From: an uncultured Verrucomicrobiae bacterium
GTDB taxonomy: Bacteria > Verrucomicrobiota > Verrucomicrobiia > Chthoniobacterales > JAFAMB01
Direction: 5' to 3'
NCBI GenBank assembly: GCA_963813025.1
Contig: CAWEXO010000005.1
Coordinates: 1 to 64,000, forward strand
Length of the DNA: 64,000 bases
Position numbers and translations under genes: made by a program. Every line of letters begins with the position of its first letter. Position 1 is the stretch's first letter. Shown here piece after piece: positions 3,705 to 52,069 of the stretch. The notes under the pieces are model-generated. The model had not been told where the DNA came from, ran no database searches, and saw only the letters and a program-made list of their open reading frames with translations.

Positions 3705-3844
3705 TTCGCTGGTAAAGGAAGATACGATCGGAAGCGCAAGGACAGAGCCAGATTCTGAGCGATCGTTCGTTCGGGTGGCTGCAGAGTTTAACATTCCAAG
3801 AAGTGCATCCGACCTGAATACGTGTAGGAGGTTGGAAAGATAGG

Positions 3845-6800
3845 GTGAAGTCAGCATCTATACCGCAAACTGATCGCGAAATTGCCACGCCGAGACCGCC
3901 GCGCAAAACGCCTTATTTTGAATCGACGCCCTTTCGCGGACTGAATTTCTTTGATTTCGAACACGCGGCGATTTTTTACGGCAGAATCAAAGCCGTTGGA
4001 GAAGTGCTCGATGCGTTGAAAAAACAGGCAAAGGCCTTACAGCGCTTTGTCTTGGTGCTGGGCGACAGTGGTTCGGGAAAGAGTTCTTTGGTTCGAGCCG
4101 GTGTTCTGCCGCTTTTGACCGAGGTTACCACCCTCGAGGGAAGCGGCCCGTGGCGTCGCGCAGTGACCCGACCGGGAGCCGGTGGCGCCGGGTGGGATCC
4201 GCTTGATGGACTTGCCGCTGCCGTTCTCGAACAATCGGCGGTGCCAGAGCTTCGGATTTCAGCGTCGCCCCACGAATGCCGAAATCTAGCCACCGTGCTT
4301 CGAACACATCCGGAGGGCGCCGCACTGCGGGTCAAGCATGCGCTGGATCGTCTCAGTCGGCCGGAGCTCGAGCCTCGCCTGGATGAGCAAGAGAGCGAGT
4401 TGCCCCTGCCACGGAAAGGCGAAGACGCTGAGCTTGCCGGACAGCAGACACTGAGCGGGGTGAAACCGCAGGCGCAGTTCGCGCTGGTCGTGGACCAGTT
4501 GGAGGAGCTCTTTACGAGCGGGTTTCCCTTCGAGCTCCAGCAGCGATACCTCGCCGCTCTCAGTGCTTTGGCTGGTTGCGAACGGGTCTTTGTCATCGCG
4601 ACCTTGCAAAGCGATTTCTTCGCCCGTTACCAACAATCTGTCGGCACAGTCGATTTCCCGGCGTCCCTCAGCACATGCGAGCCTGAGCAGCCAACACCGC
4701 GCGAGATCGGGAAAATGATCCGCTTGCCCGTCGAGGCAGCCGGTCTGCGCTTCGAGCGCGACCCCAAGACGGGACGCAGCCTGGACGAGATCTTGGTGGA
4801 GGCAGCGGCGGCTAGTCCCGAGCCCCTCCCCTTGCTCGAACACCTGCTTTTGCAGTTGTACCACAAACAACGTGAGCGAGAAGACGGTTTTCTATGCTGG
4901 TCTGATTATTACGAATTGGGCGAACTTGAGGGGGCCCTGGCCCATCATGCAGAGAGCGTCTTCTCGATGCTCAAATCGGAGGAACAGGCAGCGCTTGGAT
5001 GCGTGATGGGGCATCTGGTTACGCTCGGCTCGGGCCAGGAAGACGTCGTCAATCCCCGCACCGTCCCTTATCGTGACCTTGTTTCCTGTCCTGGATTGGA
5101 GAATGGCCAACCGGAAGGGGCGAAAGGCCTGGTTGATCGTTTGATCGAAGAAGGACTGTTGCGTGCCGAGACTGGTCCCACCCAAGAGGTGGTTGTCAAC
5201 GTTGCCCACGAGGCGCTTCTGCGGGGATGGCCACGAGTTTGGCAATGGTTTTCTGAGAACCAGGAATTTCTTCGCATGCGCGATCGGCTCGATGCCAACC
5301 TCAAGCTCTGGCTGAGTCGAGGCTGCCAAACCGAGGACTTGCTCGATCCCCGGACCAGCCGTGCTGAAGCGAAGAAATTGGCCAAAGATTTCGGATCCTC
5401 ATTAACTGAGACGGAATTCGACTACATTCAAAAGAGCCTTGCCTACCAAAACCAACGCTGGGGGGTGCGCCGTGCCATCGGGCTGGCAGTTCTCGGAGTG
5501 TTGGCTGTTCTGGCAACCAGTGCGGCGGTTATCTGGCCTCAGGCACGAATCGTGCGCAACGCGACGAAAGCCTATGCGAAACTTCAACACGGGATTGCTC
5601 ACTTGGCACCGGATGCGCACGAGGCGGCAGAGATCCAGCCGAAGAGCCCGGAACAACAAGACGCCGCACTGGTAGCAAAGAAAGCCGAACTTGCCGCAAG
5701 TCAGCGTGACGCGCTGCAGGCCCAGCTCAAGGAAATCGAAGCCCAGACGCGACCGGCCCAAAAGAATACGGACCCCGCCGCAAACCAGCGTGACGCGCTT
5801 CAGACCCAGCTTAGGGACACCCAGGCCAAGGAACAACAGGCCCAAAAGGAAGCCGAGCTTGCCGCCAGCCAGCGCGACGCGCTCCAAACCCAGCTCAAGG
5901 ACACCGAAACCAAGGCCCAACAGGTCCAAAAGAATGCCGAGCTTGCCACAAGCGAGCGAGACGCGCTCCGGGCCCAACTCAAGGACACCGAAAAGGCGCA
6001 ACAGGCCCAAAAGAATACGGAACTTGCCACAACTCAGCGTGACGCGCTTCAAGCCGAGTTAAAGGACGCCGAAACCAAGGTGCAAGCCGCTCAACAAACC
6101 GCCGAGCTTGCCACAAGCCAGCGCGACACGCTCCAAACCCAGCTCAAGGATACCGAAACCAAGGCCCAACAGGCCCAAAAGAATGCCGAGTTTGCCGCCA
6201 GCCAGCGCGAGGCGCTCCAAACCCAGCTCAAGGATACCGAAACCAAGGCCCAACAGGCCCAAAAGAATGCCGACTTAGCCGCCAGCCAGCGCGACGCGCT
6301 CCAAACCCAGCTCAAGGATACCGAAACCAAGGCCCAACAGGTCCAAAAGAATGCCGAGCTTGCCACAACTCAGCGTGACGCGCTCCAAACCCAGCTCAGG
6401 GGCACCGAAACCAAGGCCCAACAGGCCCAAAAGGATGCCGAGTTTGCCGCCAGCCAGCGCGACGCGCTCCAAGCCCAGCTCAAGGAAACCGAGGCCAAGG
6501 CACAACAGGCCCAGAAGGATGCCGAGCTTGCCATACCTCAGCGTGACGCGCTCCAAACCCAGCTCAGGGGCACCGAAACCAAGGCTCAACAGGCCCAGAA
6601 GAATGCCGAGCTTGCCACAACTCAGCGTGACGCGCTCCAAACCCAGCTCAAGGAAACCGAGGCCAAGGCACAACAGGCACAGAAGGATGCCGAGCTTGCC
6701 ACAACTCAGCGTGACGCGCTCCAAACCCAGCTCAGGGGCACCGAAACCAAGGCTCAACAGGCCCAGAAGAATGCCGAGCTTGCCACAACTCAGCGTGACG

Positions 6801-7744
6801 CGCTCCAAACCCAGCTCAAGGATACCGAAACCAAGGCCCAACAGGCCCAAAAAAATGCCGACTTAGCCGCCAGCCAGCGTGACGCGCTCCAAACCCAGCT
6901 CAAGGATACCGAAACCAAGGCCCAACAGGCCCAAAAGAATGCCGACTTAGCCGCCAGCCAGCGTGACGCGCTCCAAACCCAGCTCAGGGGCACCGAAACG
7001 AAGGCCCAAAGGAGTGCCGAGCTCGCCGCAACCCAGCATGACGCGCTCGAGGCCCAGCTCGAGGACGTCGAAGCCAAGGCGCAAAAGAATGCCGACCTGG
7101 CCGCAACCGAGCGAAGCGGGCTGGAAACCCGGCTGAACAAGGCCGAAGAGAGGGCGCAAACGGCAGAAAAGAATGTCGACCTTGTTACAAATCAGCGCAG
7201 CGTTCTGGAAACCCAGCTGAAGAAAGAAGAGGAGCAATTGCGGGCAGCGACACAGAATGGCGTTTTGGTTCAGACGCAGCCTCGCGTTGCCGAGTCCCCC
7301 GTGACAAACGGGGAGCCGGCCCAAAAGAGTGCCGACCTCACCGCAGACCAACCTAAATTCGAACAAACTCAACCACCAGATGCCCATGGCGGGCCGGCCG
7401 CTTTAACTCAACCGTCGAATGCGTCACCCCAGTCCGCCGCAACGCCCGCAAACTCCGAGTCGGCACCCGGCGGGACTCCATCTGCCGTGGAGATTCCGGA
7501 CGAAGAGCACAACGCGACAGGTTCGGACGAAAGTACACTTCGATCGCCGCCGAAGTCGCCCCGGCCCCAAAAGAGGAGCCATTCAGGGGAGCTAAAGAGC
7601 GCACGCAACGTTCCCAAATCAAGCAGAGCCAAGCGGCTGTCCGACCACCAACTCCGTCAGCCGCCGACTCCGTTGGGTCGACTGCTCCTGAAGCTTAAGG
7701 CAAAACTCAAAGCGATAACGACACCAGCGTCTTCTAACCCTTGA
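3845..7744 (+). CDS. nSTAND1-family P-loop NTPase + TM helix + 28-aa-repeat coiled coil + low-complexity basic tail
   Basis: PFRGL..F..F.GR, Walker A GDSGSGKSSLVRAG, Walker B LVVDQLEELFT, LPLL, AHEALLRGWPR; TM AIGLAVLGVLAVLATSAAVIW; ~19 repeats. Confidence 0.85.
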   Translation: MKSASIPQTDREIATPRPPRKTPYFESTPFRGLNFFDFEHAAIFYGRIKAVGEVLDALKKQAKALQRFVLVLGDSGSGKSSLVRAGVLPLLTEVTTLEGSGPWRRAVTRPGAGGAGWDPLDGLAAAVLEQSAVPELRISASPHECRNLATVLRTHPEGAALRVKHALDRLSRPELEPRLDEQESELPLPRKGEDAELAGQQTLSGVKPQAQFALVVDQLEELFTSGFPFELQQRYLAALSALAGCERVFVIATLQSDFFARYQQSVGTVDFPASLSTCEPEQPTPREIGKMIRLPVEAAGLRFERDPKTGRSLDEILVEAAAASPEPLPLLEHLLLQLYHKQREREDGFLCWSDYYELGELEGALAHHAESVFSMLKSEEQAALGCVMGHLVTLGSGQEDVVNPRTVPYRDLVSCPGLENGQPEGAKGLVDRLIEEGLLRAETGPTQEVVVNVAHEALLRGWPRVWQWFSENQEFLRMRDRLDANLKLWLSRGCQTEDLLDPRTSRAEAKKLAKDFGSSLTETEFDYIQKSLAYQNQRWGVRRAIGLAVLGVLAVLATSAAVIWPQARIVRNATKAYAKLQHGIAHLAPDAHEAAEIQPKSPEQQDAALVAKKAELAASQRDALQAQLKEIEAQTRPAQKNTDPAANQRDALQTQLRDTQAKEQQAQKEAELAASQRDALQTQLKDTETKAQQVQKNAELATSERDALRAQLKDTEKAQQAQKNTELATTQRDALQAELKDAETKVQAAQQTAELATSQRDTLQTQLKDTETKAQQAQKNAEFAASQREALQTQLKDTETKAQQAQKNADLAASQRDALQTQLKDTETKAQQVQKNAELATTQRDALQTQLRGTETKAQQAQKDAEFAASQRDALQAQLKETEAKAQQAQKDAELAIPQRDALQTQLRGTETKAQQAQKNAELATTQRDALQTQLKETEAKAQQAQKDAELATTQRDALQTQLRGTETKAQQAQKNAELATTQRDALQTQLKDTETKAQQAQKNADLAASQRDALQTQLKDTETKAQQAQKNADLAASQRDALQTQLRGTETKAQRSAELAATQHDALEAQLEDVEAKAQKNADLAATERSGLETRLNKAEERAQTAEKNVDLVTNQRSVLETQLKKEEEQLRAATQNGVLVQTQPRVAESPVTNGEPAQKSADLTADQPKFEQTQPPDAHGGPAALTQPSNASPQSAATPANSESAPGGTPSAVEIPDEEHNATGSDESTLRSPPKSPRPQKRSHSGELKSARNVPKSSRAKRLSDHQLRQPPTPLGRLLLKLKAKLKAITTPASSNP
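5684..7258 (+). repeat. Intragenic 84-bp tandem array (~16 conserved + 3 degenerate units)
   Basis: Consensus peptide AELAASQRDALQTQLKDTETKAQQAQKN, equal to four heptads. Confidence 0.95.
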
Positions 7745-7950
7745 CCCTGAGCCCAGACGGATAAGCCAATGATTGACTAGCGAAGAACGCAACGTGGCAT
7801 TGCGGTCGAACGAGCTTACGCCGAGCTCCGCAACCAATCCTTCTCGTGCTCCTGCATGAATCGCACTGGACCTCTCCCGTGTCCGTGTTTTTCGGAGGAA
7901 GTACACCTGCTCACTCCCGCTTGGCGGATTTATCCAAGATGTAAAGCTGG

Positions 7951-8622
7951 CTAAGAGCGCTGGCGAACCGTTCCCATAAAGTCAAACTGGCTAACCGCTA
8001 ACGGTAAAGGCGCAGTCGTTGCGACCGCCGCGGCAAAACCGTCCATGGTTTTAAGCGGTCGAACGGGCAGGTCATCAGCGTCGATGCTGGTCGGACTTAA
8101 ACTAAAGCCGGTACCGAGCGCCTTCAGGTACGCCTCTTTGGCCGCCCAGGTTGCAAAGAACTTCAATCGTTGGGCATCACTCGGCATTGTGTAAAATTGC
8201 TTCAGTTCGCGCGCCGAAAACACGTCGCCCGCGACATCAACTACGGAAAAATCGTACCGAATCGCTTCAACATCTACGCCAACCGGATCGCCCTGCGTCA
8301 CCGCTATCAATCCAATGTGGCGCGAATGAGAAACATTGAACTCGAGAGGAGCGGGTAACTCTTTCAACGCAGGCTTCCCCTGGGCGCTAAAGACGAATTC
8401 CAGCGACTCTGGCGATGCGCCAAGGTAGCCGCCAAGGATTCTGCGGAGGCTTGAGCGGCATACACCGAACTGAACCCCATCGCGTTTAAAATGAAAGCGT
8501 TTAACATGCTCTCGCTCTTCCGAGGACAGCGTCAGAAAATATGGCCCAGGAGCGAGAAGATCGATATCGATATGCCAGATGTGCACCTCGCCCCTCCCCA
8601 GCGTTGGCCACTTTGTTCGCAT
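7951..8622 (-). CDS. Sfp-type 4'-phosphopantetheinyl transferase
   Basis: GKPAL, FNVSHS, VGVDVE, WAAKEAYLKALGTG motifs; near NRPS genes. Confidence 0.93.
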   Translation of the reverse strand: MRTKWPTLGRGEVHIWHIDIDLLAPGPYFLTLSSEEREHVKRFHFKRDGVQFGVCRSSLRRILGGYLGASPESLEFVFSAQGKPALKELPAPLEFNVSHSRHIGLIAVTQGDPVGVDVEAIRYDFSVVDVAGDVFSARELKQFYTMPSDAQRLKFFATWAAKEAYLKALGTGFSLSPTSIDADDLPVRPLKTMDGFAAAVATTAPLPLAVSQFDFMGTVRQRS

Positions 8623-8836
8623 TTTCAGTCCGGCTCCCGCAAAGATCTTCGGCTGGTTTCATTTCTCGATCAACGCGCATCCGGCGGATTCACCGACAAG
8701 AAAAGAGCGTTGCTAAAGGACTGATGAACGTTATAGTGCCGACCTCAATGAAGTAACGATCGGAGGATGCGGGCCGCTACGGCGTCGGGTTTTAGCCGGT
8801 CGAACGGCTCTTTCCTTGAATCCCTGACTCAGAGGT

Positions 8837-9376
8837 ATGCGAGCGATTCTTTTCCCAACGTTAATTCTGTTCAGTGCTGCGACGGTCTTCAGCGCATGCC
8901 AGAGCCGAAAAGCGAACGCAAGCGCCGCGGCTCATGCCAACATCGCATCAGCTAACAGCGGAGATCTTCGGGTAGCAGTTCGGGACGACGTTGGCGTATA
9001 CCAGTATGGTCCACAGCAGCTGACCAAGCCGAACACGACTCTGAACAAGGGAGACTTGGTGCGAGTCGTTCGGAAAGGGTTTGGCTATACCCTGGTTGAG
9101 ACCGCCGAAGGAAAACGACTAGGCTGGGTAGCAAGTGAAGACCTTGGCGCCGCCCCGCCCGAAAGGACCCCGGACCAGCCTGCGGCGGTGGATAACAGCA
9201 TTCCCATTCCCGCTCCCGTTGGCATGGCTCCTACCGAGGCGCCGCCTCAAGGCACAAACGAGAATTCTGCCGCCGGGGCACCGTCTCCTGTGCAAACCCC
9301 GAACAATCTGGACGAGCAAAAGCCGCTCCCGGCGGTGTCGCCGGAGAAAGGTTCTTTCCCGATCATCGCGCCGTGA
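8837..9376 (+). CDS. Predicted lipoprotein with SH3b-like domain and Pro-rich tail
   Basis: Signal peptide ending VFSAC; LNKGDLVRVVRKGFGYTLVE...GWVASEDL; paralog at 56838-57200. Confidence 0.75.
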   Translation: MRAILFPTLILFSAATVFSACQSRKANASAAAHANIASANSGDLRVAVRDDVGVYQYGPQQLTKPNTTLNKGDLVRVVRKGFGYTLVETAEGKRLGWVASEDLGAAPPERTPDQPAAVDNSIPIPAPVGMAPTEAPPQGTNENSAAGAPSPVQTPNNLDEQKPLPAVSPEKGSFPIIAP

Positions 9377-9572
9377 CGCCGCGAGTTGGGGCGTCGCACC
9401 GATAAAGCGCACTGGATATTTTTAATTTCTCAGGAGGAGAAAAGCCACATCGGCTACAGAAATGCCGGCGACATCCGTCTTATTACGTGAGCGGTCGACG
9501 TTCGGTGGCTGTAGAGTTTAACATTCCAATAAGTGGATCCGATCCGATGCGCTTAGGAGCTGGAAAAATAGG

Positions 9573-12500
9573 ATGAAATCAACGTTCGCACCGCAAACTG
9601 ATCGCGAAATTGCCACACCGAGACCGCCGCGCAAGGGGCGCTACTTTGAGTCGACCCCCTTTCGCGGACTGGACTTCTTTGATTTCGAACACGCGGCGAT
9701 TTTTCACGGCAGAACCAAAGCCGTTGGAGAAGTGCTCGATGCGTTGAAGCAACAGGCCAAGGGCGCACAGCGCTTTGTCCTGGTGCTGGGCCCCAGCGGT
9801 TCGGGAAAGAGTTCTCTGGTTCGAGCCGGTGTTCTGCCGGTTTTGACCGAGGTTGCGGCGATCGAGAGAAGCGGCCCGTGGCGTCGTGCCGTGACCCGAC
9901 CGGGAGCCGGCGGCGCCGGCTGGGATCCGCTCGATGGACTTGCCGCTACCCTTCTCGATCAATCCGCGCTGCCAGAGCTTCGGATTTCAGCCTCGCCCCA
10001 GGAATGCCGAAATCTAGCCACTGTGCTTCGAACACATCCGGAGGGTGCTGCACTGCGGGTCAAGCATGCGCTGGATCGTCTCAGTCGGTCGGAGTTCGAG
10101 CCTCGCCTGGATGAGCAAGAGAGCGAGTTGCCACTGCCCTGGAAAGGAGAAGACGCTGAGCTTGCCGGAAAACAGTCACTGGGCGAGATCAAACCCCAAG
10201 CGCAGTTCGCGCTGGTCGTTGACCAGTTGGAAGAGCTCTTTACGAGCGGCTTTCCCTTCGAGCTCCAGCAGCGATACCTCGCCGCTCTCAGTGCTTTGGC
10301 TGGCTGCGAACGGGTCTTTGTCATCGCGACCTTGCAAAGCGATTTCTTCGCCCGTTACCAACAATCTGTCGGCACGATCAATTTCCCTGCGTCCCTCAGC
10401 ACATGCGAGCTTGACCAGCCAACACCGCGCGAGATCGGGAAAATGATCCGGTTGCCCGTCGAAGCAGCCGGTCTGCGCTTTGAGCGCGACCCCAAGACCG
10501 GACGCAGCCTGGACGAGATCCTGGTGGAGGCAACGGCGGGTAGTGCCGAGCCACTCCCGTTGCTCGAACACCTGCTTTTGCAGTTGTACCACAAACAACG
10601 TGAGCGAAAAGACGGCTTTCTCCGCTGGTCTGATTATTACGAATTGGGCGAACTCGAGGGGGCCCTGGCCCATCATGCAGAGAGCGTCTTCTCGATGCTC
10701 AAAGCGGAGGAACAGGCAGCGCTTGGATGCGTGATGGGGCATCTGGTTACGCTCGACTCGGGTCAGGAAGACGTCGTCAATCCCCGCACCGTCCCTTATC
10801 GTGACCTTGTTTCCTGTCCTGGATTGGAGAACGGCCAACCGGAAGGGGCGAAAGGCCTGGTTGATCGTTTGATCGAAGAAGGACTGTTGCGTGCCGAGAC
10901 TGGTCCCACCCAAGAGGTGGTTGTCAACGTTGCCCACGAGGCGCTTCTGCGGGGATGGCCACGAGTTTGGCAATGGTTTTCTGAGAGCCAGGAATTTCTT
11001 CGCATGCGCGACCGGCTCGATGCCAACCTCAAGCTCTGGCTGAGTCGAGGCTGCCAAACCGAGGACTTGCTCGATCCCCGGACCAGCCGTGCTGAAGCGA
11101 AGAAATTGGCCAAAGATTTCGGATCCTCATTAACTGAGACGGAATTCGACTACATTCGAGAGAGCCTTGCCTACCAAAACCGACGCTGGGGGGTGCGCCG
11201 TGCCATTGGGCTGGCAGTTCTCGGAGCGTTGGCTGTTCTGGCAACTCTTGCGGCGCTTATCTGGCCTGACACGCAAATCCTGCGAAACGCAACGAAAGCG
11301 TATGCGAAACTTCAACACGGGATTGCTCACTTGGCACCGGATGCGCACGAGGCGGCAGAGGTCCAGCCGAAGAGCCCGGAACAACAAGACGCCGCACTGG
11401 TAGCAAAGAAAGCGGAACTTGCCGCCAACCAGCGCGACGCCCTGCAGGCTCAGCTCAAGGACACCGAAGCCCAGGCGCAAACGGCCCAAAAGAATACAGA
11501 GCTCGCCGCAAGTCAGCGTGACGCGCTTCAGGCCCAGCTAAAGGACACCCAGGCTACGGCGCAACAGGTCCAAAAGAATGCCGAGCTCGCCGCAAGTCAA
11601 CGCGACGCGCTCCAAACCCAGTTAAAGGACATCGAAGCCAAAGCGCAAACGGCTCAAAAGAATGCAGAGACTGCCGCGAGCCAGCGTGACGCGCTGCAAA
11701 CTGAGCTTAAGGACACGCAGGCCAAGGCGCAGCAGGCTCAACAAAACGCCGACACGGCGGCAAGCCAGCGTGAAACGCTCCAAGCCCAGCTAAAGGATAC
11801 TGAAGCCAAGGCGCAACAGGCTCAACAGAGTGCCGAGCTCGCCGCCAATCAGCGCGACGCGCTGCAGGCTCAGCTCAAGGACACCGAGGCCAAGGCGCAA
11901 ACGGCCCGCAAGGATGCTGAGGTCGCCACAACTCCCGGTGGTGTGCTCCAAACCCAGCTAAGGGACGCTGAGGCGAAGGCGCAACAGGCCCAAAGGAATG
12001 CCGACGTGGCCGCAAGCCAGCGTGACGTGCTTCAAGCCCAGCTCAAGGACTCCCTGGCCACCGCCCAACAGGCCCAAAAGGATGCCGGCCTCGCCGCAAG
12101 TCAGCGTGATACGCTCCAGGCCCAGCTCAAGGACACGCAGGCCACTGCCCAACAGGCCCAGAAGAATGCCGAGCACGCCACAACTCAGCGTGACGCGCTC
12201 CAAGCCCAGCTCAAGGAAACCGAGGCCAAGGCACAACAGGCCCAGAAGAATGCCGAGCACGCCACAACTGAGCGTGACGCGCTCCAAACCCAGCTCAAGG
12301 ATACCGAAACCGAGGCACAACAGGCCCAGAAGAATGCCGAGCACGCCACAACTCAGCGTGGCACGCTGCAGGCCCAGCTCAATGACACCGAAGCCAAGAT
12401 GCAACAGGTTCAAAAGAATGCAGGGCTTGCCACAACTCAGCGTGATGCCCTTCAAACCCAGCTAAAGGACACTGAAGCCAAGGCGCAACAGGCCCAGAAG

Positions 12501-14354
12501 GATGCCGAAGTGGCTAAAACCGAACGCGACGCGCTGCAGACCCAGCTCAAGGACACCGAAGCCAAGATGCAACAGGTCCAAAAGAATGCCGACGTAGCCG
12601 CAAACCAGCGTGAAGCTCTCCAAGCCCAGTTAGTGGACACTGAAGCAAAGGCGCAACAGGCCCAGAAGGATGCCGAAGTGGCTAAAACCGAACGCGACGC
12701 GCTGCAGACCCAGCTCAAGGACACCGAAGCCAAGATGCAACAGGTCCAAAAGAATGCCGACGCAGCCGCAAGCCAGCGTGAAGCTCTCCAAGCCCGGTTA
12801 ATGGATACTGAAGCCAAGGCGCAAACCGCACAAAAAAATACCGAGCTTGTCACAAGTCAGCCTGACACCCTCCAGGCCCAGCTCAAGGACACCGAAGCCA
12901 AAGCGCAAGCGGCCCAAAAAAATGTCGAGCTCGCAGCGAGCCAGCGTGACGCGCTACAAAACCAGCTCAACGACGCTGAAGACAAGGCGCAAACCGCGCA
13001 AAAAAATACCGGGCTTGTCGCAAGTCAGCGTGACGCGCTCGAAAACCAGCTGAAAAGCGCAGAAGGGAAACCCGAACAGGCCGGGCAAGGAGCTAATCCG
13101 ACCCCAAAAAATGAACCGCTCACAGGGGCTCGGGAGTCCGTGAACCTGGCCTCGATCAATCAGAACCAGGCTGCCGTCTCTCCACCGACTCCGTCAATTG
13201 CCGCACCCGCAAATGCCGGCGCTGTGGCCGCTCAGACCGACAAAAAGGGTTCGGCGGAAGAACAGTCCTTAAAGCAGTTCGTTCGTGAGTATATTCGAAG
13301 TGTCGCCAGCAATGACCTCTCCGCGCAGGAGCGCTTTTTTGAACACCGAGTGAACTATTATGGCGAGGGACTCCTCTCGCGCGAGCAGGTTCGGGCGTCT
13401 CTGGTGCGTTACGAGCGGGAATGGCAGGTCCGGAACTGGGAACCGCGCGGAGAACCTGAATTACCACATGTTCTTCATTCGAAGAATCCGAGGCTTTACG
13501 AAGTTATTCAGCCTTTTACTTGGACGATCTCGAACGGCGCAAAGCACGAGGAGGGAAGTGGAACGCTCTACGTCCGGCTTTGGAAGAATGATAAAGGCGA
13601 ATTTCACATCATTTACGTCAGGCACAACGATACCGATCTTGCTTCAATAAGATCCAAATCCGGGGAAACTCAGCCCTCGAATGTTCAGAGCAAGGTGGCC
13701 ACGGCGGCTTCAACTCTGCTGTTCGATTCGTCGGCTCAAAGAAATGAGCCAGCTCCGCCGGGTCAAAAGTCCGGGAGACTCGCCCCGGTCGACCAAAGTC
13801 AAGCCGCTGTCGCTGTTCCGACGCCTTCAGTTTCGCCGTCCGCGGAATCGATATCTCCCGAGCCTCAAACCAATAAAAACGCCGAAGCTCCGGAGGACGT
13901 AACATCCTTAAAGGGGTTCGTTCGCGATTATATTCGAACTGTAGAGCGCGACGACGTTTCCGCACAGGAGCGCTTCTTCGCTCCCCAGGTGAACTTTTAT
14001 GGTGAAGGAGTCCTCTCTCTGCCGAAAGTTCAGGCGGTCACGGAGCATTACCATCGTGAATGGCCAAATCGGAAATGGGAACCCCGAGGGAACCCCAAGG
14101 TTGTCCCCTCGGCTGAACCTGATCAATACGAAATTCTTCAGCCTTTCACCTGGAGTGTCTCAAACGGCATACGGCACGCGGAGGGAAGTGCAACGCTCTA
14201 CGTCCGGGTCTCGAAGGATGGTAAAGGTGAATTTCACATTGTGCACGTGGCGCAGCAGCAAAGCGGTCCCGCCGAGAGCCGATCTAGCGCCAAGGAATTT
14301 CAACCACCCCACTCAGGCCAGAACGCGGAATCTCGAGTTAGACAGCCGCACTGA
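9573..14354 (+). CDS. nSTAND1-family NTPase + TM + 28-aa-repeat coiled coil + two NTF2/SnoaL-like domains
   Basis: Highly similar to 3845-7744 over the first ~610 aa (GPSGSGKSS, LVVDQLEELFT); 20 repeats; duplicated domain LK.FVR.YIR.V...D.SAQERFF...VN.YGEG.LS...Y.REW..R.WEPRG at ~13260-13630 and ~13900-14260. Confidence 0.85.
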   Translation: MKSTFAPQTDREIATPRPPRKGRYFESTPFRGLDFFDFEHAAIFHGRTKAVGEVLDALKQQAKGAQRFVLVLGPSGSGKSSLVRAGVLPVLTEVAAIERSGPWRRAVTRPGAGGAGWDPLDGLAATLLDQSALPELRISASPQECRNLATVLRTHPEGAALRVKHALDRLSRSEFEPRLDEQESELPLPWKGEDAELAGKQSLGEIKPQAQFALVVDQLEELFTSGFPFELQQRYLAALSALAGCERVFVIATLQSDFFARYQQSVGTINFPASLSTCELDQPTPREIGKMIRLPVEAAGLRFERDPKTGRSLDEILVEATAGSAEPLPLLEHLLLQLYHKQRERKDGFLRWSDYYELGELEGALAHHAESVFSMLKAEEQAALGCVMGHLVTLDSGQEDVVNPRTVPYRDLVSCPGLENGQPEGAKGLVDRLIEEGLLRAETGPTQEVVVNVAHEALLRGWPRVWQWFSESQEFLRMRDRLDANLKLWLSRGCQTEDLLDPRTSRAEAKKLAKDFGSSLTETEFDYIRESLAYQNRRWGVRRAIGLAVLGALAVLATLAALIWPDTQILRNATKAYAKLQHGIAHLAPDAHEAAEVQPKSPEQQDAALVAKKAELAANQRDALQAQLKDTEAQAQTAQKNTELAASQRDALQAQLKDTQATAQQVQKNAELAASQRDALQTQLKDIEAKAQTAQKNAETAASQRDALQTELKDTQAKAQQAQQNADTAASQRETLQAQLKDTEAKAQQAQQSAELAANQRDALQAQLKDTEAKAQTARKDAEVATTPGGVLQTQLRDAEAKAQQAQRNADVAASQRDVLQAQLKDSLATAQQAQKDAGLAASQRDTLQAQLKDTQATAQQAQKNAEHATTQRDALQAQLKETEAKAQQAQKNAEHATTERDALQTQLKDTETEAQQAQKNAEHATTQRGTLQAQLNDTEAKMQQVQKNAGLATTQRDALQTQLKDTEAKAQQAQKDAEVAKTERDALQTQLKDTEAKMQQVQKNADVAANQREALQAQLVDTEAKAQQAQKDAEVAKTERDALQTQLKDTEAKMQQVQKNADAAASQREALQARLMDTEAKAQTAQKNTELVTSQPDTLQAQLKDTEAKAQAAQKNVELAASQRDALQNQLNDAEDKAQTAQKNTGLVASQRDALENQLKSAEGKPEQAGQGANPTPKNEPLTGARESVNLASINQNQAAVSPPTPSIAAPANAGAVAAQTDKKGSAEEQSLKQFVREYIRSVASNDLSAQERFFEHRVNYYGEGLLSREQVRASLVRYEREWQVRNWEPRGEPELPHVLHSKNPRLYEVIQPFTWTISNGAKHEEGSGTLYVRLWKNDKGEFHIIYVRHNDTDLASIRSKSGETQPSNVQSKVATAASTLLFDSSAQRNEPAPPGQKSGRLAPVDQSQAAVAVPTPSVSPSAESISPEPQTNKNAEAPEDVTSLKGFVRDYIRTVERDDVSAQERFFAPQVNFYGEGVLSLPKVQAVTEHYHREWPNRKWEPRGNPKVVPSAEPDQYEILQPFTWSVSNGIRHAEGSATLYVRVSKDGKGEFHIVHVAQQQSGPAESRSSAKEFQPPHSGQNAESRVRQPH
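11412..13090 (+). repeat. Intragenic 84-bp tandem array (~20 units)
   Basis: Same 28-aa consensus as 5684-7258; includes a 168-bp higher-order duplication (AEVAKTERD...MQQVQKN twice). Confidence 0.95.
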
Positions 14355-14495: not shown

Positions 14496-14912
14496 ATGTT
14501 CCGATATTCCAGAAATCACCAGCATGAGCCACCGTCCGAGCGGCGTCCAATCCGGGTCCGTTCTCGAAAACTGCCCCGGGTGCAGCTTTTCCTTTGTATA
14601 ATCGGCGTCGGCAGTTTCGTTAGCGCGTTTTCTGCGGGTGCAGAATTTTTTCAAATGAACGCGAGTGTGGCGCACGCCAACCATCCGGATAGGGACAGCG
14701 GGCAGGGCGCGACGTTGATGGCCCAAAACGGAAGCTACGTGGAGAAGTATGAGAGGACGGCCACCATGACCTCAATTACAGATGCGACAAAACCCGCAAA
14801 TGTGATTACGAGAGGGCAAGCTGCCGCGGCTGAACCGAATACCGGTATCCTGATCCTGGGCGGTCTCGCTCTTTTACTTTGGATCCAGCGTTTTCGCAGG
14901 AATCGGATTTAA
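14496..14912 (+). CDS. Small PEP-CTERM-like sorting-signal protein (start uncertain)
   Basis: C-terminus AAEPNTGILILGGLALLLWIQRFRRNRI: EP motif, TM helix, Arg cluster; hydrophobic N-terminal segment. Confidence 0.65.
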   Translation: MFRYSRNHQHEPPSERRPIRVRSRKLPRVQLFLCIIGVGSFVSAFSAGAEFFQMNASVAHANHPDRDSGQGATLMAQNGSYVEKYERTATMTSITDATKPANVITRGQAAAAEPNTGILILGGLALLLWIQRFRRNRI

Positions 14913-41058: not shown

Positions 41059-44000
41059 ATGAACGCCTCCCTTCAAGATCAGCAACACGCCGAAGCTGAC
41101 CCTGCAGACAAAGTCTTTTTTTTCCCTCATTTGCACAAGAAGGGTTGTGGTTCGTTAACCAGCTTCAGCCGCATAGCGCAGCCTATAATCTGCCCTCTGC
41201 AATGCGAATCGTGGGAGAGCTGAATCTCGAAGCATTAGAAAGTAGTCTAAACAAGATCGTCGAACGTCATGAGACTCTGCGCACTACGTTCCGCGCAATC
41301 GACGGTCAGCCGATGCAGGTAATCGCGCCGGCGCGCGAGCTGAGACTGCCAATTACTGATTTGCGCGGATTGGAACCTCTTGCGTGTGTGGAAGAGGAGC
41401 GTCGCCTGATTGCTGAGGAAGCAGGGACGCCATTCGACCTGGCGCGCGGTCCGTTGATGCGGGTCAGATTGCTTCGCAGCGGCGACCGAAAGCACCTGCT
41501 GGTTACCACCCTGCACCACATCATTACCGATGAGCGGTCGAATGACTTGTTCATGCGCGAGTTGATCGCGGGCTATGAGGCATTTGCCGAAGGCCGCGAA
41601 CCGGATTTACCTGAGTTACCAATTCAGTATGCCGATTTCGCCCAATGGCAGCGGGAGTTCTTGCAAGACGGTGTACTCGAAGACCAGCTCGGGTACTGGC
41701 GAGAGAAACTGGCCGATCTACCGGTCCTTCAATTACCCATCGATCGTCAGCGTCCCCCCGTGCAGAGCTTCCGCGGGGGATCTGAATCAATCGATCTGCC
41801 AATCGACCTAACCAATGCGCTGAGGGCATTGAGCCGGCGGGAGGGGGCCACGGTTTTTATGACGTTGCTGACGGCATTCAAAGCATTGCTGGCGTGTTAC
41901 ACTAACCAGGAGGACATCGCAGTAGGCTCTCCGATTACAAATCGCACCCGTGCAGAGACAGAAAACCTGATTGGATTTTTCGTAAATACGCTCGTTCTGC
42001 GAACCGCCCTCGACGGGGATCCCAGCTTTTGCGAGGCCCTGGGACGCGTACGCGAAACGGCGCTTGACGCGTTCGAACATCAGGAGGTGCCATTCGACAC
42101 GCTCGTCCAGGCGTTAGCTCCTGAGCGACATTTCAACCAGAACCCGCTGTTCCAGGTGATGTTTGTGGTGCTGAACACCCGTCCCGAGAGGCTGCGGATG
42201 CACGATTTGATCCTGAGTCCAATCCCAATTGAGGATCCCTCTGCAAGATTTGATCTGACGATGTTTCTGTTTGAGGGGCTGGAGGGCATTCATGGATCGC
42301 TGGCCTATAGCGTCGATCTGTTTGAGGCGGTCACCATCCGGCGCATGGCCGGCCATTTCCGGAAGTTGCTGGAAGGGATCGTCGCCAATCCGAATGCGCG
42401 GCTTTCGGAACTGCGAATCCTCACGGTGGCTGAGGAGGAACAAATCGTTGTTCAGTGGAACCGAACCCAAACGGAGTTTGCTTGCCGGGCCAGCATTGAA
42501 GAGCTTTTTGAGGCAAATGTAAGCAAAACCCCTGAGGCCATCGCGCTCGAGTATGGAACCACCAGTTGGACCTATCGCCAATTGAACGAGCGCTCCAATC
42601 AACTCGCACATTATCTTCGCTCATTGGGTGTAGGTCCGGAGGTTTTGGTAGGAATCTGTGTCGAGCGCTCCCCGGATATGGTGGTGGGGCTGCTTGCTAC
42701 ACTCAAAGCCGGCGGCGCCTATGTGCCCTTGGACCCCGCCTATCCCCAAGAACGATTGGCATTTATGCTCCAGGACAGTCGAGCTCCTGTGCTCCTCACC
42801 CAAGCCCGCTTGATCGAGCGTTTGCCCTCGCACCAGTCGCGAGTTGTTTGTCTTGATTCCGATTGGCCCCAAATTGCCCAACACGGTACAGCAAATGTCG
42901 CCGTCGACACGCATCCCGAGCACTTGGCCTATGTGATCTACACTTCCGGCTCGACGGGCAAACCGAAGGGTGTACTAATCGACCGGAGGGCGATTACAAA
43001 TCAGCTGTTGTGGAGAATCGGGCAGTACGGTCTGGATTCCCGAGACGTTTTCTTACAAAAGACCACCTTCACCTTTGATGTCTCTGTTTGGGAACTGTTA
43101 TTGCCGCCGATGCTGGGCGCCAGGATGGTTCTGCTGCGGCCCGGAGCGGAGAAAGAGCCCTTGGAATTGGCTGCAGCGATCGAACGCAGTCAGGTTTCGG
43201 TGATTCATTTTGTGCCTTCGATGTTAGCTGTGTTCCTGGAATCCCTCGAGGCCAAACGATTGTTGGGAACTCTGCGGCGTTGTTTTTGCGGGGGAGAATT
43301 CCTGACGCCAGAGCTGACGAAAAGATTCTTTGATCAGTTTGGGGATCGCACCGAACTGCATAATCTTTACGGCCCGACCGAGACTGCCATCGACGTGACC
43401 TTTTATCCGGTGAGTTCGCCCGAGGACACAATCCCGATCGGACGACCCGTTGCCAACACCAGCATCTATCTCCTGGACAGGAATAAACGGCCGGTACCCA
43501 TCGGGGTAGCCGGGGAATTGTGCATCGGTGGGGTCCAGGTCGCGCGCGGATACCTGAACCGGCCGGAACTGACGGCCGAACGTTTCATCGCTAACCCGTT
43601 TAAGGCTGGAGAACGGCTGTACCGGAGCGGCGACCTGGCACGATGGCGCGCCGACGGCAATATCGAGTACCTGGGACGAATGGATCATCAGGTAAAAATT
43701 CGCGGCTTTCGCATCGAGCTCGGGGAGATCGAGGCAGCACTGCTTCGTCATGCTGATATTACCCAGGCGGCTGTTGTTGTCCGTGAGGATCATCCGGGTG
43801 AAAAGCGGCTGATTGGCTACGTTATACCCGCGAATGCTCAAAGTATCGATCCTGCGGCGTTACGCGCCCAACTCGGCAAAAGCCTGCCCAACTACATGGT
43901 GCCGGCGGCGATTGTCGTACTGGAGAAGTTGCCACTCAATGCCAATGGCAAAGTCGACCGCAAGGCGCTGCCCGCACCGGACTTCGCGGCAGCGGCGAGC

Positions 44001-47000
44001 GCCTGGCGTGGGTCACGAACACCGCGCGAAGAGATACTTTGCTCGCTTTTCAGGGAGATTCTTGGGCTATCCCGGGTGGGTATTGATGACAACTTCTTTG
44101 ATCTGGGAGGAGACAGCATCGGCTCGATTCAACTAGTCAGCCGTGCGCGCAAAGCCGGGCTGCTCATCACTCCGCGCGATGTGTTCGAGCATCAGACAGT
44201 GGAGGCGCTGGCTGCAGTGGCGAGCAGGATCAAAGAGAGCGAGACACCGGCCCTGACCGGCCCTGAGAGCGGAGCAGGAGCGCTGCCGCCAACCCCGATC
44301 ATCCACCAGCTGTTAGAGCATGGCGGACCGATCGGGCGTTTTAGCCAATCGATGCTGTTGCAAGTTCCGTCCAAACTTGTTCAGGAGCACCTGGTCGGCG
44401 CCTTACAGGCTTTGCTCGATCATCATGACGCCTTGCGGCTGCGCCTGGTGCGAGCAGCCGCCTCAGGGGCTGGAAATTGGGGCCTGGAGATTCCGCCGCC
44501 CGGGGCGATCATGGCGGGAGAGTGCCTTCGCCGGATCGATGTATCGGGACTGGAAGAGCCCGCCCGCCAAGTGTGTATCAGGGCACAGACGGAGGCGGCC
44601 GAGGGCAGGCTTGCGCCTGAGGCCGGCATCATGGTCCAGGCCGTGTGGTTCGATGCCGGTCCGACTCGGCCGGGGCGGCTCTTATGGGTCATTCACCACC
44701 TGGCCGTTGACGGCGTGTCCTGGCGCATTCTTTTGCCTGATCTGGCTGCGGCCTACCGGGCGATTGAGACCGGTCAGCCGCCAAGGCTGACTCCGTGCGG
44801 CACCTCTTTCCGACACTGGGCCCAACGGCTCAACGCCCAGGCTCAAGACCCGGCCCGGACGAGCGAACTGCCCTTCTGGCAAGCAACACTGAGTGCACCA
44901 GATTTGCCGCTGAGTCTCCAAGCCCTCGATCCCAAGCGCGACACCCGCAGTACCGTAAGGCACCTCAGTCTGACGCTGCCGGTGGCGGTGACCAGCCGGC
45001 TGCTCACTGCGGTGCCGGCCGCCTTTCACGGCCGCATTAACGACGTGCTGCTATGTACCTTGGCGTTGGCCATTGCTAACTGGCGCCGGCGCCATCACTC
45101 CCAGAACGGCCACAGTGCCAGTAACGCCGTATTGATTGATCTGGAGGGACATGGCCGCCAAGAGGAGAGCTTCGCTGGGGTTGATCTCTCGCGCACCGTG
45201 GGCTGGTTTACTTCCCTGTTCCCGGTTCGTCTCGATCCCGGTACGCTCAATTTGACTGAAGCTTTGGCTGGAGGACCGGCCTTGGCTCAGGCCCTCAAGC
45301 GCATTAAAGAACAGTTGCGCACCCTGCCCGACAACGGCCTTGGCTACGGCTTGTTACGGCATCTTAACCCGGAGAGCGCCGCCAGCCTCACTGGACTGGC
45401 CACGCCCCAGATCTGCTTTAACTATCTGGGCCGTTTCAGCGCGCCCCAGGCAGCGGACTGGGCGATAGCTCCTGAGCGGGCTGAACTCGGGGCCGGCGGG
45501 GATCCCGCCATGCCTTTTAATTATTGCCTCAGAATTAATGCGGTCACCCATGACCTGGCGGAGGGTCCCCAGTTGACGGCCAGATGGTCCTGGCCGGGCG
45601 CACTATTGTCCAACGAGGCAGTTAATGATCTGGCTCGAAGCTGGTTTAGTGCATTGCAAGCCCTGGTTGATCATGTCGCTCAGCCGGGAGCCGGCGGACA
45701 CACTCCTTCGGACTTCCCCCTGGTAGCGCTTACTCAGGTTGAGATTGAACGCCTGGAGGCCGAGCATCCGAAACTGGAAGATATCTGGCCGCTGGCACCT
45801 TTGCAGCAAGGCTTACTCTTCCATGCCCTTTATGATACCCAAGGACTCGATGTTTACACCGTCCAAGTGGTGCTTGGGCTGGAAGGGTCCCTGCAGGAAC
45901 CAGTACTCCAAGCAGCCGCAAACGCTCTTTTACAGCGCCATGCCAACCTGCGCGCCAGTTTCCAGCATAGCTTTAACCAACCGCTCCAACTCATCCACTC
46001 GGAGGTGTCTTTGCCCTGGCGCACGGTGGATCTTTCGACGCTTGAGCCGGCAGCTGCACGCGAGGAACACTTTGCCCAGCTCCTGGCCCAGGATCGCGCT
46101 CAACACTTTGATCTGAGCGCTGCTCCCCTCCTGCGCTTTACCCTGGCCCGTTTCGGGCCAGACCAGCATCGGCTCATCCTAACCAAGCATCACATCCTTA
46201 TGGACGGTTGGTCGGGGCCCATCCTGGTTCGGGAACTGTTCACTCTCTATGCCCAAAATGGCAAGAGCAGTGCTCTGCCGCGAGTGACCCCCTATCGGGA
46301 TTATCTCGCCTGGCTCGCCGCCCAGGATCAGGCTGCGGCCAGAGCTGCCTGGCAGGCTCAATTGGCTGGGCTCGAGGAGCCGACCCGGCTGGCTGCCCCT
46401 CACTCGGGACGCGCCCCTGCTGCTCCGGAACGGATCATCCTGGATCTGCCCAAACCACTGACTGAGGCCCTTACCCGGCAGGCTCGTTCCAACAGCCTGA
46501 CGCTTAACACCATTTTACAAGGCGCCTGGGCCATCCTCCTGGGGCGTCTGACGGGCCGCGACGATGTGGTCTTTGGCGTCACCGTGAGTGGCCGGCCGCC
46601 GGAGATCCCCGGCATCGAGTCCATGGTCGGACTCTTCATTAATACTCTCCCCTTGCGCGCTCGATTGCGGTGGAGCGATTCGCTGATCGAACTTTTCACT
46701 CACCTGCAGCAGAATCAGGCTCAGCTTCTGGCCCATCAGCATCTGGGACTGCATGAGATCCAGCGCTTGGCAGGTTTGCGCGAACTGTTCGATACACTGC
46801 TGGTCTTCGAAAATTACCCGATTGAAGGCAGCGCCAACGGAAAATCCTTTGCCGGCTTACGCCTCGCCAGTGCCCAAGGAACAGATGCCAGCCACTATCC
46901 TCTGAGCCTCGTCGTGGCGCCCGGGGAACGTTTGCGTCTGCGTCTCGATTATCGTCCCGATTGCTTCGAACCCAGCAGCGCTGAAGCGATTCTCCAACGC

Positions 47001-50821: not shown

Positions 50822-52069
50822 ATGCCCATGAGCAAGTTTCAAAGCCCCTTGACTATTCTTGCCGCTTTCATAGTTACCGGTTTTGTAGCCCGTGCGCAAG
50901 AGGTTGGCCTTGAGGTCCCTGACCTTGGGCTTACCGTCCCCGGCAGGCTTACCTTGTACAGGCCGATAACCGGTATCTATCAGGGCGAGTTCGTCCAGCG
51001 CCCGCTCACATTAGGTCTTGCGGCAGCGATTGGGTACGACGATAACGTCGATACCTCTCATAACGAGCGCGTTGGCAGCGGATTTACGGCGCCTCGACTA
51101 GAGATAGCATCAAGCATTGGGAGCGAGCGCACTCGACTGAGGGCTGATCTGCGATTGGGATTCGTCGGCTATTGGGATATTCCCGGCGCAGCGCTCCAAC
51201 CTGATATTTCGTTCGACCTGACTTTCACGCACCAATTCAGCCCCCGCCTTGTGCTCGGGTTCTCCTCTTTCGTAACTTATCAAGGCCAGCCGAACTTCGC
51301 TTTCGGCATCGGGAAAACGACCAACGTTGGCAATTACGTCTACAGTACGAATAGCGTCGTGCTTGGCTATCAGTGGACTGAACGGTTTTCCACTGCTACC
51401 AGCTATACGCTGAATGCTGCTTATTACGAATCCAGCACCGTCGGGAGCACCTCGAACCTGCTTGAGCATGTGATTGCTCAGCAATTTCGATACCTGGTTC
51501 TGCCGACTATTGCGGCGGCGGCTGAATATCGATTTAGCTACGAACAATACGTCAACACAAATCTTAATTCGTACTCCCACTTCGTTCTGGCTGGAGCCGA
51601 TCTCACGCTCACCCCGCGGTTGCAGTTCACCTTTCGCGCTGGTGCCGAATTCCAGACCGATCTTTTCCATGGAGGAACGAGTCCGACCTCCCCATACTTT
51701 GAATCCACGCTGACCTACGCTTATCGACGCAACTCCTTCATTCAGTGGTACAATCTTTATGATTTGGAACGATCCGATATCAACACCGCCAATACCAAGG
51801 ACGTCTACCGGACTGGATTAAAGATACTTCATTCGTTTGGCGCAAGGTTGCAGCTGGGCGGTGGCCTCTACTATTCGTACAACCACAATGAGGGCCCGCC
51901 ATCCTCGTTTGATGAGCATCAGGTAGAGGCAACGGCGACAGCGAGTTACCAGCTCACGCGTGCGTGGACGCTCCAAGCCGGTTATACCTTTACCGATGTC
52001 TTGTCGGATATCAATTCGCGAAGCTATTATCGGAACAGGGTTTTTCTCGGGGCAGCCTTCACCTACTGA
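50822..52069 (+). CDS. Outer-membrane beta-barrel associated with EPS export
   Basis: Signal peptide, GYDDNV, alternating aromatic beta strands, C-terminal YYRNRVFLGAAFTY; directly upstream of wzc/wza. Confidence 0.8.
   Translation: MPMSKFQSPLTILAAFIVTGFVARAQEVGLEVPDLGLTVPGRLTLYRPITGIYQGEFVQRPLTLGLAAAIGYDDNVDTSHNERVGSGFTAPRLEIASSIGSERTRLRADLRLGFVGYWDIPGAALQPDISFDLTFTHQFSPRLVLGFSSFVTYQGQPNFAFGIGKTTNVGNYVYSTNSVVLGYQWTERFSTATSYTLNAAYYESSTVGSTSNLLEHVIAQQFRYLVLPTIAAAAEYRFSYEQYVNTNLNSYSHFVLAGADLTLTPRLQFTFRAGAEFQTDLFHGGTSPTSPYFESTLTYAYRRNSFIQWYNLYDLERSDINTANTKDVYRTGLKILHSFGARLQLGGGLYYSYNHNEGPPSSFDEHQVEATATASYQLTRAWTLQAGYTFTDVLSDINSRSYYRNRVFLGAAFTY

Follow-up and report, generated by a model that had tools for sequence, protein, structure and literature searches.

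Paired effector-less STAND ATPases with a predicted membrane helix, long repeat stalks and different tips in an uncultured Verrucomicrobiae bacterium

Two tandem genes for STAND-type ATPases lie at positions 3,845 to 14,354 of the window, by which we mean the whole 64,000-nucleotide stretch analysed here (positions 1 to 64,000, forward strand, of contig CAWEXO010000005.1, assembly GCA_963813025.1) from an uncultured Verrucomicrobiae bacterium of the Chthoniobacterales. Their products, P0001 (paralog 1) and P0002 (paralog 2), share an nSTAND1 NTPase module, a predicted transmembrane (TM) helix and a long array of 28-residue repeats, and differ in their C-terminal tips. G000 denotes the genome of the window and G001 a congeneric sister genome. 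The features of the pair are as follows.

3845..7744, + strand: open reading frame (ORF) of paralog 1, P0001, 1299 aa, with nSTAND1, TM helix, 19 x 28-aa repeat, low-complexity linker and basic tail with amphipathic helix
3929..5326, + strand: nSTAND1 NTPase module of P0001 (Pfam), Walker A K79 and Walker B D217/E220 intact, Gln255 (Arg in WD40-type relatives)
5477..5533, + strand: predicted single TM helix of P0001, aa 545-563, after an Arg-rich stretch (hydropathy)
5684..7255, + strand: 19 four-heptad repeats of P0001 (repeat scan), a predicted coiled-coil stalk
7256..7741, + strand: Pro/Ser-rich linker, basic stretch and C-terminal amphipathic helix (about 7673-7720) of P0001
9573..14354, + strand: ORF of paralog 2, P0002, 1593 aa, with nSTAND1, TM helix, 20 x 28-aa repeat and two NTF2-fold domains
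9657..11054, + strand: nSTAND1 NTPase module of P0002 (Pfam)
11205..11261, + strand: predicted single TM helix of P0002, aa 545-563 (hydropathy)
11412..13088, + strand: 20 four-heptad repeats of P0002 (repeat scan), a predicted coiled-coil stalk
13257..13634, + strand: NTF2-fold domain 1 of P0002 (AlphaFold model, structural matches)
13902..14273, + strand: NTF2-fold domain 2 of P0002, 58% identical to domain 1 (sequence comparison with domain 1)

Pfam nSTAND1 (PF20703) matches aa 29-494 in both P0001 (E 4e-77) and P0002 (E 3e-77), at 261 bits against a curated cut-off of 27.1 and over profile positions 1-376 of 379, so that 28 residues precede the NTPase in both. The first 620 aa of the two proteins are identical at 565 of 620 positions (DNA 93%). 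One strongest hydrophobic 19-mer per protein was located at aa 545-563, with Kyte-Doolittle values of 2.51 and 2.61 (the runner-up, 1.71, falls within the NTPase), an Arg cluster before it and Trp-Pro after it. The shared NTPase, hydrophobic helix and short leader of the original prediction are thus confirmed, as is its count of 19-20 four-heptad repeats reaching about 80 nm: 19 copies were found in P0001 (aa 614-1137) and 20 in P0002 (aa 614-1172), spanning 528 and 563 aa, or 78 and 84 nm fully extended at 0.1485 nm per residue. The heptad core positions are Ala, Leu, Thr and one Arg, and each protein has three Pro in its repeat. A coiled-coil state is predicted from this sequence pattern, and 80 nm is to be taken as an upper bound because the Ala-rich core could permit bending or folding back; a complex prediction with two copies of P0002 aa 540-790 scored 0.00 and was uninformative on oligomer state. 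Neither protein gave a TPR, WD40, LRR or FGE sensor match (Pfam, E 0.01), nor a Pfam match to kinases or methyltransferases.

The two tips are different in kind. P0002 ends in two domains of about 125 aa, 58% identical to each other, the first of which was modelled by AlphaFold with a mean confidence (pLDDT) of 92.6 and matched NTF2 folds (Foldseek TM-score 0.81; best Z 16.7, root-mean-square deviation 1.9 over 121 residues), bearing out the two NTF2-like domains that had been proposed. The NTF2 domains have no Pfam match, Cds6_C (PF24125) included, yet the domain resembles Cds6_C clusters in the Atlas (score 0.91, 147-152 shared features), and domain 1 aligns to Csd6 and Bd1075 (Z 14.4 and 14.5) at 12-13% identity. 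P0001 had been predicted to end in a disordered basic tail; basic it is, and it also ends in an amphipathic helix which is kept in the sister-genome ortholog. As a separate observation, TIR_2-TM-linker proteins (P0018, P0024, P0029, P0032 and, in the own genome, L097:781-1869 on the - strand, equal to G000:C13:525024-526112) end in either the same NTF2 domain or a basic amphipathic tail, in parallel with the tips of P0002 and P0001; the own copy, whose tail is of the same basic amphipathic kind, adjoins an L,D-transpeptidase-like gene. P0049, P0053, P0062, P0065, P0067, P0076 and P0091 are TM-linker-NTF2 proteins with a Cys-rich cytoplasmic leader and no Pfam match.

For comparison with relatives, 60 loci were taken for the best matches of the N-terminal 616 aa (weaker and fragmentary matches being left out) and pooled with protein matches, giving 147 distinct NTPase cores of at least 480 aa, which are related and not independent rows. 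Among these, 93 combine an N-terminal domain with a stalk and/or NTF2 domain, and 18 combine it with WD40 repeats. A further 8 carry the domain with other or incomplete ends; it is absent from 24, in groups of 8 and 16, and 4 cores seem to be truncated. The N-terminal domain is present in 93 of 118 stalked relatives. A rapidly built tree of 62 rows places the WD40/TPR forms in one clade (support 99), with the stalked forms outside it. In a set of 93 homologs biased to long proteins, the repeat spans 222-770 aa.

The N-terminal domain of the relatives is about 210 aa long. It has no Pfam match, DUF4062 (PF13271) matching 0 of 15 members at E 1 and not the own-genome WD40-type copy on contig C8 either, and a PDB sequence search found nothing. 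Its fold model was poor (pLDDT 47; the cut lacked the first strand) and the fold search gave no match. The nearest Atlas clusters carry DUF4062 (22 of 30 matches, top score 0.95, 198 shared features), and a putative catalytic Glu stands at the expected place in 88 of 93 stalked effector-bearing members and 16 of 18 WD40 members. DUF4062 has been described as a TIR-like NADase, dependent on such a Glu and serving as an antiphage Avs effector (bioRxiv 10.64898/2026.09.04.749371, 10.64898/2026.05.01.722283; papers are cited here by PMC or bioRxiv number for the parts of them that were available). The domain is thus probably a DUF4062-like NADase by resemblance, not by family membership, and the name goes no further than that because the fold test failed. 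Apart from this, L050, L049, L055, L062, L072, L075 and L076 encode family members whose sensors are WD40 or TPR repeats and in which a Ser/Thr kinase is fused ahead of the DUF4062-like domain and the NTPase (a Pfam kinase in the four scanned).

Using a DNA profile of this domain, remnants were detected upstream of both window genes.

3755..3867, + strand: what is left, as DNA, of the beginning of the lost domain; it overlaps the start codon now used by paralog 1 and is not read in frame (nhmmer E 8.5e-4, profile 71-183)
9489..9601, + strand: DNA remnant of the domain start joined to the domain end; the start codon now used by paralog 2 lies inside it (nhmmer E 1.1e-7, profile 73-189 then 652-755)

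At both genes the start of the domain (about 70-189) comes directly before its end (652 onward), pointing to an internal deletion of about 465 nt that removed the Glu-bearing core, with the new start codon lying in the remnant. The same junction is found in G001, where two of three genes are strong (E 1e-10 and 4e-10) and the third gives E 0.42; no match was obtained in 8 control intergenic regions. An assembly error as the cause of the missing domain was ruled out, because G001 has the junction in three genes and because the 428 and 196 nt to the upstream neighbours are too little for about 210 codons. An amyloid-type signalling motif in the 28-aa leader was also set aside, the leader being rich in Pro and charge and explained as deletion-junction sequence. 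A second effector-less group has a different leader and is sister to an effector-bearing gene, and a single origin of the effector-less forms was rejected by the approximately unbiased test (p-AU 2.7e-50, 17 rows). The effector was lost at least twice, and its absence from the window pair is a derived deletion. The original prediction was right that an effector is absent from the pair, with 28 aa only before the NTPase; this absence is not how the family as a whole is designed.

The disarmed genes are maintained under purifying selection. By simple Nei-Gojobori counting over 510 NTPase codons, the ratio of nonsynonymous to synonymous substitution (dN/dS) is 0.28-0.35 among the five disarmed genes of G000 and G001 (9 pairs), 0.28-0.38 in the other disarmed group and 0.13-0.38 in 5 effector-bearing pairs; about 0.3 is thus seen, over dS of 0.2-0.4, in two independent disarmed clades. 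The NTF2 domains gave 0.26 and 0.22, and the P0001 tail 0.44 against the sister ortholog. All 147 cores keep the Walker A Lys and the Walker B Asp/Glu without exception (K79, D217 and E220 in the window). Arg255 and His455, which we take by position to be the sensor-1 Arg and the winged-helix His of STANDs, occur together in 17 of 18 WD40-type cores vs 9 of 118 stalked cores, suggesting a relaxed switch throughout the stalked subfamily, in armed and disarmed members alike. The window pair keeps His455 and has Gln instead of Arg at 255; Gln stands at 255 in 5 of the 8 members of the window's clade, whereas the other disarmed clade keeps Arg in 16 of 16. NTPase sites group by genome (51 sites, vs 13 grouping by position and 6 other), indicating gene conversion between the tandem copies, and a third copy in G001 (L038) ends after 692 codons, without a stalk.

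The N-terminal 616 aa were matched (E 1e-10) in 31 of 36 other genomes of the same family and in 1 of 24 from the order's other families, the 28-aa repeat in 31 of the family's 43 genomes and in 0 of 150 drawn from elsewhere in the class, and the NTF2 domain in 41 of 43 family genomes. Source names on four homologs read Chthoniobacterales or Verrucomicrobia, and the stalked subfamily looks confined to one family of Chthoniobacterales-like genomes. The genes around its members serve transport, metabolism and the envelope; across 166 neighbouring ORFs, of which 51 were scanned for families, no defence gene recurs, and there was no PADLOC match. Two recurrent partners were noted. A large exported PstS-like/sugar-binding/OmpA-like fusion (L079:224-3460, - strand, with 7 related loci, also L039) is convergent with armed stalked STAND genes, eight of which lie beside it, and an exported YHS-domain protein (L052:7436-8104 and 11 related loci) recurs beside WD40-type nSTAND1 genes (12 neighbours). 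A gene that we presume from its motif to be SLOG/SLATT-like recurs beside the WD40 members as well.

As to where the stalk lies, the ATPase is family-wide without a signal peptide and is followed by one strong TM helix with an Arg-rich inner flank. The same 28-aa repeat, in 8-20 copies and with a basic amphipathic tail, was found behind HlyD/AcrA adaptor domains in 10 of the 120 matches listed, and 4 of these 10 are fused to a GT2 glycosyltransferase. The bearers are membrane fusion proteins of HlyD/AcrA type (P0158, P0176, P0193, P0194, P0199, P0200, P0201, P0206, P0209 and P0264), and the adaptor bodies of such proteins are periplasmic. The adaptor ortholog in the own genome (G000:C9:5700-7075) is without a stalk, so the stalk appears to be an optional cassette. 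The NTF2 domain, for its part, ends exported proteins: among 50 scanned, 3 carry PG_binding_1, 2 carry trypsin domains and 4 are TIR-TM-linker proteins. The TM/Arg flank pattern, the repeat on the adaptors and the NTF2 domain on exported proteins together, though indirectly, favour a periplasmic stalk, and a single-pass inner-membrane protein with its C-terminus out is predicted. A wide periplasm in this lineage is plausible by analogy with Chthoniobacter flavus, in which a ribosome-free outer compartment is visible (PMC2647929).

On the best reading, the two proteins descend from an NLR-like receptor in which a DUF4062-like NADase, nSTAND1, a TM helix and a sensor followed one another. The deletion of the effector is shown, and so is the retention under selection of the ATPase, TM helix, stalk and tips. 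As to present function, an envelope-spanning receptor or scaffold, as originally suggested, remains the best reading of a membrane-anchored STAND with two kinds of tip and a predicted extracytoplasmic stalk, and we tentatively prefer an effector-free tether, or strain or spacing sensor, between the inner membrane and the wall or outer membrane. To judge from the anatomy, the nSTAND1 module would be a cytoplasmic, still nucleotide-binding and oligomerising anchor, the stalk would lie in the periplasm, the NTF2 tips may bind peptidoglycan, and the basic amphipathic tip may bind an anionic surface, for instance the outer membrane on its inner face. It can be speculated that the pair, having no killing output, would work as tethers or strain/spacing sensors beside the polysaccharide export machinery, and that the stalk would be a flexible reach-extender and not a calibrated ruler.

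Several points weigh against this tether or strain sensor. The NTF2 domains of Bd1075 and Pgp2 target or bind peptidoglycan, that of Pgp2 binding peptidoglycan fragments (PMC8938487), but Csd6 and Bd1075 rank 16 and 19 behind higher-Z NTF2 folds, so peptidoglycan binding is a lead only. Charge bias alone cannot fix the topology because basic residues also follow the TM helix in the window proteins. In 12 of 43 family genomes, among them one of 2 contigs at 95% completeness, the repeat has no match, and this speaks against an essential structural role. Because the Glu is kept in 88 of 93, most members of the subfamily may still be armed for defence, and a partner of the pair may be missing from the data because the own genome is 80% complete.

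This last point bears on a sensor-only defence subunit, in which the tips would detect an invader or wall damage in the periplasm and the protein would co-oligomerise with an armed nSTAND1 paralog, or recruit a membrane TIR protein, to cause NAD+ depletion, as in sensor/helper NLR pairs. We regard it as a serious though unlikely alternative. Armed stalked paralogs coexist with disarmed ones in G001 and G010, TIR-TM-linker-NTF2 proteins do exist (the 4 of 50 above), and DUF4062 is the antiphage NADase of the Avs preprints cited. The own genome holds the TIR_2-TM protein with the similar tail and a third nSTAND1 paralog with a DUF4062-like N-terminus, TM helix and WD40 repeats (L001:5500-10625, - strand, equal to G000:C8 about 224500-229625), in many frameshifted pieces. 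This C8 copy, which faces a probable SLOG/SLATT-like gene in convergent orientation and has an IS630-like transposase nearby, carries the sole N-terminal DUF4062-like domain found in the own genome, and it may be intact in the cell because several ordinary genes of the assembly are also frameshifted. Neither an effector-bearing stalked paralog nor a stand-alone DUF4062-like effector was found in this 80% complete assembly. The sensor subunit is opposed by the lack of an effector gene adjoining the pair in either the own genome or G001 and of any defence neighbourhood, by tips that are not diversifying (dN/dS 0.2-0.3) and by degenerate switch residues.

A broader picture proposes a transenvelope STAND class specific to the family. 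Its coiled coil, 30-110 nm long and periplasmic, would form a mechanical link from the wall or outer membrane to a switch in the cytoplasm that destroys NAD+, and what it detects would be a breach or separation of the envelope, not a phage protein; the effector-less paralogs, evolved repeatedly, would be sensor, brake or structural subunits, and the stalk cassette would have been shuffled onto other periplasmic machines of enlarged-periplasm bacteria. We think this picture rather improbable as a whole.

Two further options we consider improbable, the one as much as the other. Effector-less copies could be decoys or brakes that poison armed oligomers or soak up ligand, averting self-killing. 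That role is compatible with the loss of the effector more than once, independently and with everything else kept, with the presence of armed paralogs alongside in G001 and G010, and with Gln for the probable sensor-1 Arg in 5 of 8 of the window's clade, but up to four disarmed copies occur per genome, no armed stalked copy was found in the own genome, and the other disarmed clade retains Arg in 16 of 16. The pair could also be a ruler or scaffold for capsule or exopolysaccharide export, in a WbdD- or Wzc-associated role. The G001 pair lies directly upstream of genes for an outer-membrane barrel and Wzc, a member of the other, independently disarmed group (L088) is followed by Wzc, and the same stalk occurs on the adaptors fused to GT2 glycosyltransferases (4 of 10). 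However, most stalked loci have no polysaccharide genes in the flanks taken, the tip carries no catalytic terminator domain, the own adaptor ortholog lacks a stalk, and congeneric orthologs differ by half in their number of repeats. A fixed WbdD-like ruler fits poorly with 12 and 13 repeats in the syntenic G001 genes vs 19 and 20 here and with spans of 222-770 aa in the set of 93 homologs, so that the molecular ruler once suggested for these genes is weakened.

Decaying relics, kept open by chance and by gene conversion after effector loss, are very unlikely: dN/dS at the upper end of the family range, the 692-codon L038 and the evident gene conversion speak for decay, and dN/dS of about 0.3 in two disarmed clades, open frames of 1.3-1.6 kaa in two species and invariant Walker motifs against it. 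Hardly credible is a wholly cytoplasmic filament or scaffold whose helix is no true membrane span, for although WD40-type relatives have shorter helices at the equivalent place, which often fall below the hydrophobicity threshold, those of the window reach 2.5-2.6 with Trp-Pro after and an Arg cluster before, and the stalk and NTF2 modules sit on periplasmic or exported proteins.

Compared with the nSTAND1 conflict-system NTPases, a clade named in PMC8195603, the window pair has the full nSTAND1 module and relatives with the usual effector-NTPase-WD40/TPR layout; it differs in having neither an effector nor a WD40/TPR/FGE sensor, and in its TM helix, repeat of about 550 aa and NTF2 or amphipathic tip. 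The sensors of Avs and NLR-like receptors are TPR-like, WD40 or FGE (PMC13581612). Avs proteins with a DUF4062 (NIR) NADase resemble the ancestral form in their DUF4062-like N-terminal domain with conserved Glu and central STAND; they are described as cytoplasmic, sensing phage proteins with TPR-like repeats and requiring the effector (bioRxiv 10.64898/2026.09.04.749371; PMC13581612), whereas in the window pair the effector is deleted and the C-terminal part is predicted to be periplasmic. Membrane-anchored NACHT/nSTAND1 proteins with CLec (FGE) have predicted periplasmic domains, some without an identified effector (bioRxiv 10.1101/2023.09.22.558884); in the part of that preprint available, they differ from the pair in having no long stalk, a variable lectin sensor diversified by a diversity-generating retroelement, and partner effectors encoded nearby. 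The Csd6, Pgp2 and Bd1075 domains (Cds6_C; PMC8938487) share the NTF2 fold and its C-terminal place on envelope proteins, but at 12-13% identity, and theirs sits on an L,D-carboxypeptidase rather than on a STAND stalk. The iSTANDs of ternary systems are catalytically inactive, accompany MoxR and vWA and are in some cases membrane- and wall-proximal (PMC7159879); like them the pair is a STAND-derived component with altered catalysis, unlike them it has intact Walker A/B, and no MoxR or vWA genes were seen nearby. The WbdD ruler likewise places a long coiled coil between two functional ends, whereas the pair has no catalytic tip and a variable repeat number. WbdD itself is cytoplasmic; its tip is a kinase/methyltransferase and its stalk is much shorter.

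In the literature searched, no STAND combining a TM helix, tandem coiled-coil stalk and NTF2 tips was found described, so that the architecture does not appear to be an already characterised family; preprint supplements may list DUF4062-STAND-TM proteins, and the supplements of PMC13581612 gave 0 matches to architecture terms, its tables possibly listing accessions only. The concept is not categorically new, because periplasmic-sensor STANDs without an effector have been noted and defence and non-defence STAND clades interleave (PMC13581612).

The subfamily is of interest in that its business end is predicted to lie tens of nanometres past the inner membrane, combined with a relaxed nucleotide switch. 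To our knowledge, the bacterial STAND receptors characterised so far sense phage proteins in the cytoplasm. The window pair records a traceable disarming and probable reuse of an immune receptor with the deletion scar still readable, armed/disarmed and WD40/stalked forms offer natural matched pairs for studying STAND ATPase signalling across a membrane, and the mobile stalk and tips may be used to trace envelope architecture in a soil lineage that is abundant and mostly uncultured.

Two genes lie between the paralogs.

7951..8622, - strand: 4'-phosphopantetheinyl transferase (Pfam), likewise between the paralogs in G001
8837..9376, + strand: probable lipoprotein, 87% identical in G001 (weak SH3_2 match, E 0.003, under the cut-off)

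The pair is syntenic in G001 with the same two tips. The window counterparts of the outer-membrane barrel and Wzc genes found directly downstream of it there lie at 50822 and 52164, and the intervening 15277-50601 (about 35 kb, with a kinase-like gene, a phosphoribosyltransferase/HAD fusion, five non-ribosomal peptide synthetase (NRPS) ORFs and a glycosyltransferase) has no counterpart at the syntenic place in G001, whose flanking sequences adjoin each other. The link once drawn to a capsule/NRPS locus therefore holds for the adjacency to polysaccharide export genes, which is common to both genomes, and fails for the NRPS part; a functional link to the NRPS cluster was rejected, the cluster being missing at the syntenic place.

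In the NRPS genes at 21991 and 29964 the domains start almost identically, which suggests duplication. Indel errors of the assembly are suggested by ORFs that are split or truncated (NRPS, aconitase-like, GT2, adaptor) at window 41145-49783 and 61970-62617 and at G000:C9:2002-2972. Just downstream of the pair, window 14496-14912 encodes a small exported protein without a Pfam match that has, by eye, a PEP-CTERM-like C-terminal motif, and two related copies of it are present in G001.

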